Origin: a virus
Taxonomy: Duplodnaviria; Heunggongvirae; Uroviricota; Caudoviricetes
Length of the DNA: 16,164 nucleotides
Strand: one strand, 5' to 3'
Virus record (IMG/VR): IMGVR_UViG_3300012275_000005
Shown here: piece after piece, positions 548-9,967 of the stretch
How positions within the stretch are numbered: position 1 is the first letter of the stretch
Layout: each line of letters begins with the position of its first letter
The notes under the pieces: generated by a model
The model's input: only the letters and a program-made list of their open reading frames with translations
Database searches by the model: none
Told to the model about the DNA's origin: nothing
Translations under genes and position numbers: made by a program

Positions 548-899
548 ATGACTCAAAACTATGAAGTGATTGTGAAAGGGATCCGCAATTTTGAGAATAA
601 AGTTACGGTAACTTTAGCGTTACGGGACAAAAAAACGCTTTGACGGTGAAATTTTTGACCTGGACATCTCGCTGGACCGTGTTGAAGGTGCCGCGCTGGA
701 GTTTTATGAGGCAGCAGCCAGAAGGAGCATCAGACAGGTCTTCCTGGATGTTGCTGCCGGGTTATGTGAAGGGGATGAGCAGTCGCCGGAAAAGCGCCCC
801 GTAATTTTAGATGCGCAGAATGTGTGGATAACCTACAAAGGAAAGCTACCAGGAAGAATTACTGGTTCTCTGAAGACTCCTCCGGAATCACAACCTTAA
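548..899 (+). pseudogene. hypothetical protein, reading frame disrupted at an A7 tract (629..635)
   Basis: ATG 548 with GGGGAGAG upstream opens a frame that stops at 641..643 (31 aa). A second frame is open 618..899 but contains no ATG and overlaps the first across A7. Removing one A joins them into a ~116-aa hydrophilic protein (MTQNYEVIVKGIRNFENKVTVTLALRDKK-RFDGEIFDLDISLDRVEGAALEFYEAAARRSIRQVFLDVAAGLCEGDEQSPEKRPVILDAQNVWITYKGKLPGRITGSLKTPPESQP). Function not recognised. Confidence 0.45.
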
Positions 900-2097: not shown

Positions 2098-2583
2098 TTA
2101 TTTTGTGGTTTTGAAAAGTTTCATGTACTGATTGATAGGTTTTCCTGAGTAAGAATCTGTCCCTGGCTCAGGATTATCAGATAAAACTTTTGCAGCTAAT
2201 TTGTTGGAGGCTTGATTACCAACCCCGACAATAGCCTCTACATAGAATTCATTGAAGGAATTTCTAAATCCGTATTGCATTTCTTCAATGCTGGCGATGA
2301 GAAGTTGAGTACCGATGCCTTGCGCTTTATATTCATCAGCTACTGCATAGCCAACGCCAAAGCATGGTTTACCTTCAACAAACTCTGCAGGGACATATAT
2401 AGCAACACCTTTAACATTTTCTCCTTCAAAGAATGCATAAGTAAACCGTGGTGTACCCTCTGCATCATCCAAAAGCACCTTCATATTTGGGTGAACTATG
2501 CATGGTGAAGGCTTAATCAGACCATTAGAAAAGGCGTATTGAAAACTAATTAATGAGTCTGTTGGATCAACGAGTTCTGGCAT
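2098..2583 (-). CDS. GNAT-family N-acetyltransferase (moron, AT-rich, antisense to the late operon)
   Basis: 161 aa; GNAT motif-A-like segment AVADEYKAQGIGTQLLIASIEEM; own RBS AGGA about 7 nt before the ATG; sequence visibly more AT-rich than all flanking phage genes; only minus-strand gene in the window. Confidence 0.75.
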   Translation of the reverse strand: MPELVDPTDSLISFQYAFSNGLIKPSPCIVHPNMKVLLDDAEGTPRFTYAFFEGENVKGVAIYVPAEFVEGKPCFGVGYAVADEYKAQGIGTQLLIASIEEMQYGFRNSFNEFYVEAIVGVGNQASNKLAAKVLSDNPEPGTDSYSGKPINQYMKLFKTTK

Positions 2584-3386: not shown

Positions 3387-3534
3387 TAACTGTTCTCATC
3401 TGTAGGGGAGGGGCGGGTCAAATCTCTGCAACCCTGGCTGCTCAGGACCGCCGCCTGACCCTTCCTCACATCGCCGCAGGTTCGAAAACTTTTTTTTGGA
3501 AATGTGAACAAACGATTGATAGGTAAGACCGATT

Positions 3535-5785: not shown

Positions 5786-5968
5786 ATGTTTCTGATAATT
5801 CTCGCGCCACTGGTGGGCGTGCTGGGTGCGCTTTTGCTGGCGTATGGTGCCTGGCTGATTTATCCCCCGGCGGGGTTTGTTGTTGCCGGGGCGTTGTGTC
5901 TGTTCTGGTCGTGGCTGGTGGCGCGATATCTCGACCGTACACAGCCGTCTTTCGGCGGAGGTAAATAG
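5786..5968 (+). CDS. hypothetical small membrane protein (2 predicted TM helices)
   Basis: 60 aa, [26 protein letters not shown]…[20 protein letters not shown] then charged tail; RBS GAGGT upstream; fills the terL-portal gap exactly, with its stop overlapping the portal GTG. Could still be a chance ORF in GC-rich DNA. Confidence 0.35.
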
Positions 5969-7092
5969 TGTTCTTTTCGGGATTATTTCAACGAAAAAGT
6001 GACGCACCGGTGACCACGCCAGCAGAGCTGGCGGATGCCATCGGGTTGTCTTACGACACCTATACCGGAAAGCAGATCAGCAGTCAGCGGGCCATGCGAC
6101 TGACGGCGGTTTTTTCCTGCGTCAGAGTGCTGGCAGAGTCGGTCGGGATGTTGCCCTGCAATCTGTATCACCTGAACGGCAGCCTGAAACAGAGAGCCAC
6201 CGGCGAACGTCTGCATAAGCTGATCTCCACGCATCCCAATGGCTATATGACGCCGCAGGAGTTCTGGGAGCTGGTGGTCACCTGTCTGTGCCTGAGGGGA
6301 AACTTTTACGCCTACAAAGTGAAAGCATTTGGCGAAGTGGCTGAACTGCTGCCCGTCGATCCCGGTTGTGTGGTACCGAAGCTTAACAGTAGCTGGGAGC
6401 CGGTCTATCAGGTCACATTCCCGGACGGCTCCACGGATGTGCTGAGCCAGGAGGATATCTGGCATGTGCGCACGCTGACGCTGGACGGACTGGTGGGGCT
6501 GAATCCCGTCGCCTATGCCCGCGAGGCAATATCGCTGGCGGCAGCGACTGAAGAGCACGGGGCCAGACTGTTCAGCAATGGTGCGGTGACGTCCGGTGTG
6601 TTGCGTACAGAACAGACGCTGTCGGATCAGGCTTATGAGCGCCTGAAGAAAGATTTTGAGGAGCGTCACACCGGGCTTGGCAATGCTCACCGCCCGATGA
6701 TCCTTGAGATGGGGCTGGACTGGAAGTCGATGGCGCTGAACGCCGAGGACAGCCAGTTCCTGGAAACCCGCAAGTTTCAGCTTGAAGAAATCTGTCGTCT
6801 GTTCCGGGTACCGTTGCACATGGTGCAGAACACCGATCGCGCCACCTTCAACAATATCGAAGAACTGGGGCTCGGATTTATCAACTATTCACTGGTGCCG
6901 TATCTGACCCGCATCGAACAGCGGATCAACACCGGACTGGTACGAAAAAGTAAGCAGGGCGTTTATTACGCCAAATTTAACGCCGGGGCGTTACTGCGCG
7001 GGGATATGAAGTCCCGTTTTGAAGCCTACGCCACCGGGATTACAACTGGGGAATTTACTCTCCCAATGACTGCCGCGACCTGGAAGATATGA
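5968..7092 (+). CDS. portal protein (HK97 family); 3' end apparently frameshifted, with a portal-like C-terminus continuing in another frame to 7211
   Basis: 374-aa ORF with GGAGG RBS and GTG start. The frame ends …EAYATGITTGEFTLPMTAATWKI-stop, but the next frame reads …NWGIYSPNDCRDLEDMNPRPGGDVYLTPMNMTTKPSDGSKAGKQKDNANADETTS-stop (7041..7211), which looks like the genuine hydrophilic portal C-terminus. Confidence 0.85.
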   Translation: MFFSGLFQRKSDAPVTTPAELADAIGLSYDTYTGKQISSQRAMRLTAVFSCVRVLAESVGMLPCNLYHLNGSLKQRATGERLHKLISTHPNGYMTPQEFWELVVTCLCLRGNFYAYKVKAFGEVAELLPVDPGCVVPKLNSSWEPVYQVTFPDGSTDVLSQEDIWHVRTLTLDGLVGLNPVAYAREAISLAAATEEHGARLFSNGAVTSGVLRTEQTLSDQAYERLKKDFEERHTGLGNAHRPMILEMGLDWKSMALNAEDSQFLETRKFQLEEICRLFRVPLHMVQNTDRATFNNIEELGLGFINYSLVPYLTRIEQRINTGLVRKSKQGVYYAKFNAGALLRGDMKSRFEAYATGITTGEFTLPMTAATWKI

Positions 7093-7188
7093 ATCCGCGT
7101 CCCGGTGGGGATGTCTATCTCACACCGATGAACATGACCACGAAACCCTCCGATGGCAGTAAAGCCGGTAAGCAGAAGGATAACGCCA

Positions 7189-7839
7189 ATGCAGACGAAA
7201 CAACGTCTTGATGTACCGCTGAGTCTGAAATCTGTCAGTGACTCCGGTGAGTTTGAAGGGTATGGCTCCGTCTTTGGTGTAAAGGACAGCCACGATGATG
7301 TGGTGATGTCCGGGGCATTTGCTGCTTCCCTGCGGGCGTGGAGTGACAGAAAAGCGTTACCTGCGCTGCTCTGGCAGCACCGCATGGATGAACCCATCGG
7401 TGTTTACACCGAAATGAAGGAAGACGATGTCGGGCTTTACGTCAGGGGGCGGTTGCTCATTGATGATGATCCCCTGGCAAAACGCGCACATGCACACATG
7501 AAGGCCGGTTCGTTAACCGGCCTTTCTATTGGGTACTTCCTGAAGGACTGGGAATACGACCGGACGAAAGAAGCCTTTCTGCTGAAAGAAATCGACCTCT
7601 GGGAAGTCAGTCTGGTGACGTTCCCGTCTAACGACGAGGCACGGATCAGCGACGTCAAGAACGCGCTGGCCCGCGGGGAAATCCCCGAACAGAAAAAAAT
7701 CGAAAGAGTCCTGCGTGATGTCGGACTCTCCCGTACCCAGGCCAAAGCATTCATGGCCGGGGGCTATAGCGCACTGTCCCTGCGCGACGCTGAGGATGTG
7801 AGCTCTGCACTGAATGCACTGAAAAATCTGAACTTCTAA
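7189..7839 (+). CDS. prohead protease (HK97 family)
   Basis: MQTKQRLDV…FEGYGSVFGVKDSHDDVVMSGAFAASL… motif typical of HK97-type prohead proteases; RBS AAGGA 6 nt upstream of ATG 7189. The track ORF starts at 7153 in the same frame; I prefer 7189. Confidence 0.8.
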   Translation: MQTKQRLDVPLSLKSVSDSGEFEGYGSVFGVKDSHDDVVMSGAFAASLRAWSDRKALPALLWQHRMDEPIGVYTEMKEDDVGLYVRGRLLIDDDPLAKRAHAHMKAGSLTGLSIGYFLKDWEYDRTKEAFLLKEIDLWEVSLVTFPSNDEARISDVKNALARGEIPEQKKIERVLRDVGLSRTQAKAFMAGGYSALSLRDAEDVSSALNALKNLNF

Positions 7840-7853
7840 TCAGGAGAAATACG

Positions 7854-9059
7854 ATGGCGGTAGATATTAAAGATGTCGAACAGGTCGCGCAGGAGCTGCA
7901 GCAGAAGTTTGACGACTTCAAAGCAAAGAACGACAAGCGCGTGGATGCGATTGAGCAGGAAAAAGGCAAACTTGCCGGGCAGGTGGAAACCCTGAACGGA
8001 AAACTCAGCGAGCTGGAAAATCTCAAAAGCGACCTTGAAAAAGAGCTGCTTGAGCTGAAACGTCCGGCAGGTGGTGCGCAGAATAAACTGGCCACCGAGC
8101 ATAAAGAAGCGTTTGTGGGCTTCCTGCGTAAAGGCCGTGAAGATGGTCTGCGCGATCTGGAGCGCAAGGCATTACAGGTGGGCACCGATGAAGACGGTGG
8201 CTATGCCGTGCCGGAAGCGCTGGATCGCAACATTCTGACCTTGCTGAAAGATGAAGTGGTGATGCGCCAGGAAGCCACGGTGATCACCGTTGGCGGTTCC
8301 GACTACAAAAAACTTGTGAATCTGGGCGGCACGGCTTCCGGATGGGTTGGCGAGACTGACGCGCGCTCCCAGACTGCCACCTCAAAACTGGGCCTGATTG
8401 AACCTTTCATGGGGGAAATCTACGGTAACCCGCAGGCCACCCAGAAAATGCTGGATGATGCCTTTTTCAACGTGGAGGCCTGGATCAACAGCGAGCTGGC
8501 AACCGAATTTGCCGAACAGGAAGAAATTGCCTTTACCACCGGCGATGGTACCAAGAAGCCGAAAGGGTTCCTGGCGTATGAGTCCACGGATGAAACAGAC
8601 AAGGTCCGGGCGTTCGGCAAACTTCAGCATATTGTATCCGGCGAAGCGACGGCGGTGACCGCAGATGCCATTATCAAACTGATTTACACGCTGCGTAAGG
8701 CACACCGCACTGGCGCGAAGTTCATGATGAACAACAACAGTCTGTTTGCCATCCGTCTGCTGAAAGACAGTGAGGGTAACTATCTGTGGCGTCCGGGGCT
8801 GGAGCTGGGGCAGCCGTCCTCTCTGGCGGGTTACGGTATCGCTGAAAACGAACAGATGCCGGATATCGCCGCTGATGCGAAAGCCATTGCATTTGGTAAC
8901 TTCAAACGGGGTTACACCATCGTTGACCGTATCGGTACCCGCATTCTGCGTGACCCGTACACCAATAAACCGTTTGTCGGTTTTTATACCACCAAGCGCA
9001 CCGGCGGGATGCTGGTCGATTCGCAGGCCATCAAACTGCTGAAGATTGCAGCGGCGTAA
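7854..9059 (+). CDS. major capsid protein (HK97 fold) with N-terminal delta/scaffold domain
   Basis: 401 aa; the first ~100 aa are a charged coiled-coil-like segment (…QELQQKFDDFKAKNDKRVDAIEQEKGKLAGQVETLNGKLSELENLKSDLEKELLELK…) as in HK97 gp5 delta domain; strong RBS AGGAG; follows the protease. Confidence 0.9.
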   Translation: MAVDIKDVEQVAQELQQKFDDFKAKNDKRVDAIEQEKGKLAGQVETLNGKLSELENLKSDLEKELLELKRPAGGAQNKLATEHKEAFVGFLRKGREDGLRDLERKALQVGTDEDGGYAVPEALDRNILTLLKDEVVMRQEATVITVGGSDYKKLVNLGGTASGWVGETDARSQTATSKLGLIEPFMGEIYGNPQATQKMLDDAFFNVEAWINSELATEFAEQEEIAFTTGDGTKKPKGFLAYESTDETDKVRAFGKLQHIVSGEATAVTADAIIKLIYTLRKAHRTGAKFMMNNNSLFAIRLLKDSEGNYLWRPGLELGQPSSLAGYGIAENEQMPDIAADAKAIAFGNFKRGYTIVDRIGTRILRDPYTNKPFVGFYTTKRTGGMLVDSQAIKLLKIAAA

Positions 9060-9066
9060 TCACTCA

Positions 9067-9086
9067 GGGGCGCGGAACCGCGCCCC
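9067..9086 (+). terminator. GC-rich hairpin (GGGGCGCG-GAAC-CGCGCCCC) immediately after the capsid gene; weak U-tract
   Basis: Perfect 8-9 bp GC stem located 8 nt after the MCP stop; followed by TGTT only, so at best a partial terminator or an mRNA 3'-stabilising hairpin. Confidence 0.4.
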
Positions 9087-9107
9087 TGTTCTGACGGGTG
9101 AAGAATC

Positions 9108-9296
9108 ATGATCCTGAAACAAGATCTGAAATGGTCACCGGACGGTATGCGTGTTGAGATTATTCGGGCCGGTGAGTATGAAGATAAAGAATTACCCGAA
9201 CGGGTACGCGAAATTGCCACTGCAGCTGGGATTGTCTCTGATAAGAGAACACCTGTTGCGCGGGGGGCTGATAAGTCTAAAAAACAGCATTCATAG
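9108..9296 (+). CDS. hypothetical protein (62 aa)
   Basis: ORF between the capsid and connector genes, hydrophilic and charged; no recognisable motif. Confidence 0.35.
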   Translation: MILKQDLKWSPDGMRVEIIRAGEYEDKELPERVREIATAAGIVSDKRTPVARGADKSKKQHS

Positions 9297-9621: not shown

Positions 9622-9967
9622 ATGCAGGCAGGAAGATTACGTGATCGTGTGGTTATTCTGAATGCCACCACCGTTCGGTCTCCGTCAGGGCACCCTGTGG
9701 AAACAATGACGGAGGGGGCAACCATATGGGCAGAAGTTAAGGGGNNNNNNNNNNAGTGGCAGGGAGAGAATATCCGGAGGCGCAGAAACTGCTCAGGCTA
9801 CAGTGAGGGTCTGGATGAGATTCCGGCGAGATGTAACAGCAACTTCATGTCTGAAAGTGCTGACTGGTGCATTCAAAGGCGCGATTCTGAGTATAGACGG
9901 TCCGCCGATACCGGATGCTCGTGCCACACGGCTTGAGATACTCTGTTCTCAGAAGGGGAATGTGTGA
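9622..9967 (+). CDS. head closure / head-tail joining protein (HK97 gp7-like), interrupted by an N gap and probably a frameshift
   Basis: N-terminus MQAGRLRDRVVILNATTVRSP…IWAEVKG in one frame. After the gap, …VAGREYPEAQKLLRLQ-stop (9756..9806) and …QATVRVWMRFRRDVTATSCLKVLTGAFKGAILSIDGPPIPDARATRLEILCSQKGNV-stop (ending 9967) lie in two different frames. The track translation after the gap (WQGENIRRRRNCSGY…) looks non-protein-like. Confidence 0.6.
9745..9754. other. assembly gap (10 N) inside the head-closure gene
   Basis: Run of N; true length unknown, so the reading frame across it is undefined. Confidence 0.99.

Follow-up and report, generated by a model that had tools for sequence, protein, structure and literature searches.

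A one-base insertion in an A6 tract very probably pseudogenises a YdfR-family gene in the lysis cassette of a lambdoid Escherichia coli prophage

Introduction

The lysis cassette of phage 21 has the order S21-R21-Rz/Rz1, with no gene between S and R. The cryptic prophage Qin of Escherichia coli K-12 has the order essQ-ydfR-rrrQ-rzpQ, in which ydfR is located between the class II holin gene and the lysozyme gene. In two-hybrid and co-purification assays, Qin YdfR (b1555, P76160) bound the N-terminal, catalytic half of RNase E through a surface located within residues 1–72. RNA co-purifies with the protein, its overproduction barely alters the transcriptome, and the protein is unexpressed under standard conditions (PMC13232886). 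This binding to RNase E and RNA is the sole experimental lead on the function of the intact protein; otherwise, its domain family, DUF1327, is mentioned in a single paper, and there only in passing, and the relevant ydfR study is the one cited here (PMC13232886).

Two other described systems bear on a gene whose reading frame is broken. The elements of the programmed +1 frameshift in prfB, which encodes RF2, have been defined (PMC13245932). Genes expressed by transcriptional slippage (IS elements, mxiE and Thermus dnaX) contain a conserved A/T run of approximately 9 bases, rarely 8, and productive slippage is documented for 9-base and sometimes 8-base runs (PMC1088944).

Here we analyse a stretch of 16,164 nucleotides (the window; IMG/VR record IMGVR_UViG_3300012275_000005, Caudoviricetes). 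A preliminary description of this DNA had placed a frame-disrupted gene between a pinholin gene and an endolysin gene. We conclude that the gene is a YdfR/DUF1327 late gene, very probably pseudogenised by a slipped-strand insertion of one A.

Results and discussion

Organisation of the lysis cassette

The cassette is encoded on the plus strand. The 3´ end of a phage-21-type class II (pinholin-like) holin gene was identified by translation (475–543, with the stop codon TAA at 541–543), and the identical DNA in genome AR_0089 carries the annotation class II holin family protein (WP_000839572.1). A SAR-type endolysin gene (963–1478; Phage_lysozyme, PF00959, E 6e-19) is followed by an Rz spanin gene (1475–1942; PF03245, E 1e-47), in which Rz1 is embedded (1695–1880; PF06085, E 2.5e-17). 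These assignments confirm the two flanking genes that had been proposed. The window shares with phage 21 the class II pinholin-like holin, the nested Rz/Rz1 pair and a signal-anchor-release-like N-terminus of the endolysin. Relatives of this endolysin contain E35, D44 and T50 at R21 numbering, which we take to be the catalytic triad of R21.

Unlike the phage 21 cassette, the window contains a gene between holin and endolysin (548–899), as do Qin and many Stx and lambdoid prophages. The preliminary description regarded this gene as a departure from the phage 21 type. The arrangement is in fact ordinary: an 86-nt ydfR segment is present in 3296 of 5426 complete E. coli genomes (about 60%), and the window has the same gene order as Qin essQ-ydfR-rrrQ. 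Location between a class II holin and a lysozyme characterises the E. coli subgroup rather than the DUF1327 family as a whole.

A Shine-Dalgarno-like element read from the sequence (GGGGAGAG, 533–540) lies 7 nt 5´ of the ydfR ATG and forms a putative ribosome-binding site. The 63-nt spacer (900–962) between ydfR and the endolysin ATG (963) contains no obvious Shine-Dalgarno sequence (..CCTGATAAATATCCATG), whereas Qin ydfR overlaps rrrQ by 4 nt. Scanning of positions 1–2700 for promoters and terminators returned nothing above the shuffled expectation.

The 5´ end of the window falls within the final gene of a phage tRNA cluster located between Q and the holin gene (1–66; L001, 2251–2560), and a search of positions 1–2600 against Rfam returned this truncated tRNA and nothing else. 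The cluster comprises tRNAs CAU (Met/Ile2), Lys-UUU, Thr-UGU and Gly-UCC; the tRNA-Lys(UUU) reads the AAA AAA codons of the slippery tract described below. On the other side of the cassette, a GNAT-family acetyltransferase gene (2098–2583, minus strand) is located between Rz and the HNH/terminase genes. This gene is present in AR_0089-type prophages and absent at the same position in APEC O1, and it therefore looks like a moron-type insertion.

A single gene split at an A7 tract

Translation from the ATG at 548 gives a 31-codon open reading frame that terminates at TGA (641–643), and the resulting 5´ fragment (548–643) has the sequence MTQNYEVIVKGIRNFENKVTVTLALRDKKTL*. The +1 frame, in the phase of position 549, exhibits no stop codon from 619 until TAA at 897–899 and encodes the 3´ fragment RFDGEIFDL...TPPESQP* (636–899). 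Both frames overlap across a run of exactly seven A residues (A7, 629–635). No ATG, GTG or TTG was found in the downstream frame between 619 and the GTG at 822, which makes independent expression of this frame impossible. Re-initiation as a source of the 3´ fragment was rejected for the same lack of a start codon before 822. Frame reading thus reproduces the overlapping frames and the missing downstream ATG of the preliminary description.

Removal of one A joins the two frames into a 351-nt open reading frame of 116 codons. Residues 1–112 of the repaired protein align with positions 1–92/93 of the DUF1327 profile (PF07041), contiguously across the junction, with 142.4 bits (gathering cut-off 25) and an E value of 5.1e-42. 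The contiguous match of both pieces to one Pfam profile is not due to chance. The repaired protein also matches PHROGs 2091, 406 and 1085, all of unknown function, and the identical DNA is named 'YdfR family protein' by NCBI. The joined 116-aa protein, in which no motif had been recognised previously, is accordingly identified as YdfR/DUF1327 by profile search, although the function of the family is unknown.

The gene of APEC O1, located in the same place, has an A6 tract and encodes an intact 116-aa product (WP_000193274.1). Its alignment with the window contains a single-column gap at 629–635, the insertion site, where the wild-type A6 forms the codons AAA AAA for K28 and K29. The 3´ fragment of the window is 100% identical to that of AR_0089, and a single substitution, P79S, separates it from the intact APEC O1 sequence. 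The run is unremarkable by itself, since nine homopolymers of seven or more bases occur in the window.

The window gene and Qin YdfR belong to the same family (E 5e-42), with the common N-terminal core MTQ.YEL.VKG.RNFENKVTVT.AL.DK.RFDGEIFDLD...DRVEGAALEFYEAAARRS.RQVF. Qin ydfR is intact and contains AAAGAA in place of the A6 tract (GAC AAA GAA CGC), whereas the window gene is frameshifted. The C-terminal tails also differ: Qin YdfR is a 103-aa protein with a distinct tail, and the window gene has the 116-aa '...TPPESQP' form. Instead of an uninterrupted frame for the ~72-aa YdfR core domain, translation in the window ends at codon 31. The window gene belongs to the YdfR family as a pseudogene.

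The A7 allele in other genomes

The 526 bp around the window ydfR are 100% identical in five complete genomes (AR_0089, FDN-4, VTB96937v, GPEC172 and GPEC102). These genomes are 99.2% identical to the whole 16-kb window, and all five carry A7. The comparison with closely related prophages that had been suggested thus gives A7 in the five closest and A6 in APEC O1. RefSeq annotates the AR_0089 gene (AM468_RS22490) as 'YdfR family protein, frameshifted'. The E. coli 042 gene (EC042_RS07115), also an A7 allele, carries the same annotation, as does every A7 copy inspected.

Tract lengths were counted as exact-match records with 84- to 87-nt queries, in which flanks of 39 and 40 nt were kept identical. 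Among the E. coli records, A6 was found in 1379 (98.3%), A7 in 22 (1.6%), A5 in two (0.1%) and A8 in none, which, together with intact APEC O1, corroborates the earlier proposal of one gene with a 1-nt insertion whose A6 version is in frame. The A7 carriers include E. coli 042, the genome of which was finished by capillary sequencing, and poultry, pig, calf and human isolates from three continents. In IMG/VR, three contigs contain the A7 32-mer and at least 120 the A6 31-mer. The 85-nt A6 length was found in all 21 deposited phage genomes that carry the ydfR segment, and the exact A7 32-mer gave no match among GTDB species-representative genomes.

These data bear on a homopolymer error of sequencing or assembly, one of the causes raised in the preliminary description, by which the strain would truly have A6 and an intact gene. 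The difference is indeed a single base inside a homopolymer. Two further homopolymers differ from the closest relatives (T8 instead of T9 at 143–150, and T8 instead of T7 at 3490–3497), and lesions of the window that are found in no other genome could hint at a noisier assembly. However, the identical A7 allele in 22 complete genomes from unrelated projects and many laboratories, E. coli 042 among them, makes a sequencing error very unlikely. The five closest genomes over 16 kb and two IMG/VR contigs from samples with metagenome-type identifiers, all with A7, also speak against it. An intact gene hidden by an error is barely credible in our assessment. The comparisons instead indicate that A7 is, with high probability, a real and heritable slipped-strand insertion, and its presence in the strain of the window itself is supported by the identity to the other genomes. 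The AR_0089-type prophages, with their RefSeq frameshifted pseudogene, retain an intact 177-aa endolysin and an intact portal protein, whereas the window has private lesions in both genes.

Spread and stability of the tract length

Fourteen A7 copies (the window and 13 fetched loci) were compared. They form seven haplotypes, belong to two classes by C-terminal allele (gene lengths of 316 and 352 nt) and occupy four cassette contexts: Q, tRNAs and holin WP_000839572; a SASA esterase gene and holin WP_000284510 with the short gene; holin WP_000284510 with the long gene and a different lysozyme; and a TolA-like gene that precedes essD. Because all A7 backgrounds share nearly the same first 228 nt of ydfR, recurrent insertion and recombinational spread of one allele are inseparable. 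Either process could account for A7 on several backgrounds, and the allele would be heritable in both cases.

The 86-nt A7-length allele is uniform within clonal sets of isolates: ten bovine (OkiPb), three poultry (729_) and three calf-farm isolates. One OkiPb record was checked base by base (OkiPb01676; L006, 1459–1810). Its A7 allele exhibits three additional non-synonymous changes at conserved positions (D37A, D43G and P101L) and no private synonymous change, as expected after loss of constraint. Judged by these substitutions, this allele seems to represent the same pseudogene at an older stage of decay, and it is probably common to the ten related bovine isolates.

A third cause raised in the preliminary description was ON/OFF switching, in which the A-run would be a contingency locus that renders ydfR phase-variable. 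A coding homopolymer near the 5´ end could make expression dependent on the frame. Alleles with +1 (A7) and −1 (A5) lengths both occur in nature, A7 is present on several backgrounds, and the frame can be regained, as the compensated double-shift allele P0058 shows. By contrast, one tract length dominates, the tract is short, and the clonal isolate sets are uniformly A7. Contingency loci exhibit broad polymorphism of tract length between and within close isolates, and the census found instead a single prevailing length with rare neighbours. The A6 tract is also not conserved in the family, as Qin ydfR contains AAAGAA and many alleles encode DKE, and the further damaging substitutions of the OkiPb allele fit a dead gene rather than an OFF state. 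We consider a switch scarcely credible. Slipped-strand mutation is accordingly the one of the three proposed causes that stands; the 22 complete genomes make a sequencing error unlikely, and the length spectrum and the uniform clones do not support switching.

Frame errors at the same A-rich spot were also observed in proteins from other genomes. P0173 and P0185 continue in the third frame (...NALTVKFLTW...), and P0058 (DKNALTAKFLT-DISLDR, 115 aa) has the appearance of a −1 shift for which a second indel, approximately 10 codons later, compensates. From these cases, the A-rich stretch is a modest indel hot spot.

Resemblance of the new stop to the prfB site

The frame-0 stop of the A7 allele lies in the sequence CTT TGA C (638–644), which is exactly the prfB-type shifty stop with C as the fourth base. 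Three recoding routes were considered by which the A7 allele would still yield full-length YdfR. In the first, a +1 ribosomal frameshift at CUU UGA C would give DKKTL-DGEIF in place of DKKRF-DGEIF (R30T/F31L), with the predicted junction peptide DKKTLDGEIFDLDISLDR. In the second, a +1 ribosomal frameshift would occur on AAA AAA A, where tRNA-Lys re-pairs one base forward to give the wild-type product. In the third, RNA-polymerase slippage would generate A6 transcripts. The latter two routes share the predicted junction peptide DKKRFDGEIFDLDISLDR.

Several features favour recoding beyond the heptamer itself, which as in prfB calls for a +1 shift. The two residues changed by the first route are located in the loop between strand 2 and strand 3, where the family varies most, and P0042 and P0060 naturally have Leu at position 31. 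For 1-bp deletions in E. coli, non-programmed frameshift suppression has been measured at 1–10% (PMC10861913). Prophages of this type also carry a phage tRNA-Lys(UUU) gene a short distance upstream.

Two of the four prfB elements, the SD-like stimulator and the spacer, are nevertheless absent. The prfB gene has an AGGGGG SD-like element 3 nt upstream of CUU, which is missing from the upstream sequence of the window (AAAAAAACG). The best anti-SD duplex near the window CUU has −4.0 kcal/mol at GGGA, 10–13 nt upstream, compared with −10.3 kcal/mol at 3 nt in prfB, and the spacer codon is ACG (635–637) instead of UAU/UCU. Folding of positions 620–720 revealed no frameshift-stimulating RNA structure (z = −0.31), and the heptamer occurs at chance frequency (two in the window, 2.2 expected). 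A programmed frameshift of the prfB type would be conserved among homologues. That of the window is not: 98% of the alleles are in frame (A6 in 1379 records, A7 in 22), and the OkiPb allele decays downstream of the shift. For transcriptional slippage, the run of 7 is unconserved and shorter than the productive runs of 9, sometimes 8, bases (PMC1088944). A −1 frameshift was rejected because it leads into the wrong frame and lacks X XXY YYZ phasing.

The wild-type codons CGC TTT GAC give rise to CTT TGA C after the insertion, so the heptamer was created by chance. The stop resembles the prfB site without belonging to its class and was made by a recent mutation. Rescue of full-length YdfR by any of the three routes is very improbable in our estimate. 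Because CTT TGA C and AAA AAA A are both slippery for +1 shifts, the A7 allele may be leaky rather than null. Any rescue would plausibly be a low-level leak, with no sign of a selected mechanism. The more specific proposal that A7 is a leaky, RF2-sensitive hypomorph, in which the +1 shift occurs at CUU UGA C (R30T/F31L) or at AAA AAA A (wild-type protein), we regard as highly doubtful. If this were true, the RNase E/RNA-binding late protein would still be made at a reduced level that depends on the state of translation, and the A6 tract would function as a slow, evolutionary dimmer of a moron-like ydfR.

The YdfR family and its possible function

A homologue of YdfR is encoded by 101 deposited phage genomes, which are mostly Stx-converting and lambdoid phages. 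A search among 1.84 billion representatives gave 88 DUF1327 clusters at 50% identity. At 90% identity there are 311 clusters, nearly all from Escherichia or Shigella where the source names an organism. The family is thus very small and essentially enterobacterial.

In the AlphaFold model of YdfR, three antiparallel strands (residues 5–14, 18–27 and 34/37–43) are followed by a long helix (50–72/76), and the 116-aa form has a disordered tail after the helix. The pLDDT is 61 for the full-length protein and 89.8 for the 73-aa core. Distant DUF1327 members consist of this core alone, with 72–76 aa. The only invariant internal residues across the family are the Y and E of the 'FYE' motif, and the most variable stretch is the strand 2–strand 3 loop, the site of the frameshift.

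Comparison of the DUF1327 profile with PDB chain sequences found no match (best E 1.1, CENP-P). The fold-search matches represent a generic strand-strand-strand-helix arrangement and were rejected as an identity. A dsRBD theme would fit the reported co-purification of RNA, but the match was too weak and YdfR is devoid of the first dsRBD helix.

Over the first 76 codons, closely related intact ydfR alleles have a pN/pS of ~0.64. This is a descriptive figure, and it indicates from the alleles compared that constraint on the intact gene itself is weak.

The distant 72–76-aa DUF1327 proteins are encoded inside tail-gene modules, outside lysis cassettes. Five loci were examined (L021, 4001–4519; L017, 1636–2160; L019, 93–616; L020, 511–966; L018, 446–992), and the sites occupied are between chaperone G/T and the tape measure gene, between M and L, and downstream of an I-like gene. 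A small convergent open reading frame (70–99 aa) on the opposite strand follows the distant DUF1327 gene in all five contigs. Three of these partners are 44–52% identical to each other and have no Pfam match. The DUF1327 gene and its convergent partner may constitute a conserved two-gene moron. The occurrence of the core-only relatives in tail modules argues that the family behaves as a late accessory gene of the moron type and not as part of the lysis machinery. Our best guess, drawn from the RNase E and RNA binding of Qin YdfR, is that intact YdfR is a small, late-expressed modulator of host RNA metabolism that would be dispensable for lysis.

Mechanism and consequence of the insertion

The data are best explained by the following sequence of events. 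The window ydfR is an accessory gene of an E. coli prophage of the lambdoid, HK97-like kind and is located in its Q-dependent late operon, between the phage-21-type class II holin gene and the SAR endolysin gene. Strand slippage during DNA replication, the mechanism that we infer, would have added one A to the A6 tract at K28-K29. Translation from ATG 548 now departs from the frame at codon 30 and ends at TGA 641–643. The outcome is a 31-residue peptide with only strands 1 and 2 of the ~72-residue core of three strands and a helix. Since this product is devoid of the helix with the invariant FYE motif, it is expected to be inactive, and the A7 gene would be functionally null or nearly so on the structural model.

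Little effect of the frameshift on lysis is expected for several reasons. In closely related prophages, the cassette that surrounds the broken ydfR is otherwise intact. A 63-nt spacer is present instead of translational coupling to the endolysin gene, unlike in Qin, where the two genes overlap. Q-antiterminated late transcripts are resistant to Rho polarity. The distant family members, finally, are located in tail modules and not in lysis cassettes.

The feature is an ordinary pseudogene that was already known, as the identical sequence is annotated as frameshifted in RefSeq. It matters little in itself, being one more homopolymer frameshift in a dispensable prophage gene. The A6 tract is now documented with +1 alleles at ~1.6% of copies on several prophage backgrounds, and natural ydfR knock-outs in otherwise intact-looking prophages such as that of AR_0089 provide material for probing the role of the gene. 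The prophage of the window is decaying, with private endolysin and portal lesions, which tempers any functional reading of its lysis cassette.

Other lesions and assembly features of the window

Compared with AR_0089 and APEC O1, the endolysin gene of the window has an 18-bp in-frame deletion after position 1089 (1089/1090), which removes D44–W49 (DGSGIW) and with them the Asp of the E35/D44/T50 triad (phage 21 R numbering). The deletion was found in none of the top-listed matches of 1334 matching E. coli records, all of which span the undeleted 104 bp in two pieces. From the residues lost, the endolysin is probably inactive. The portal gene (5968–7092) contains a TA insertion relative to AR_0089 (7041–7042, GGGAT-TA-CAACTGG), which shifts the reading frame and truncates the product from 413 to 374 aa, with an altered C-terminus; none of 1065 matching E. 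coli records contains an exact match to this insertion.

The two lesions suggest a defective prophage or a noisy assembly. Should they be real, the ydfR frameshift is one lesion among several in a defective prophage copy. Should they be artefacts of assembly, the prior for an error at the A-run is slightly raised, but A7 is still independently verified in the closest relatives.

Three runs of N (279–474, 1951–1991 and 9745–9754; 196, 41 and 10 positions) correspond to AR_0089 stretches of 230, 64 and 3. The first masks most of the holin gene, namely its 5´ part. The T-run differences at 143–150 (T8, T9 in AR_0089) and 3490–3497 (T8, T7 in AR_0089) are intergenic indels, and three 1-nt gaps relative to AR_0089 occur between the capsid gene and the next open reading frame (9060–9105). 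A denser block of SNPs relative to AR_0089 spans approximately 5875–9210, and its distribution suggests a mosaic segment.
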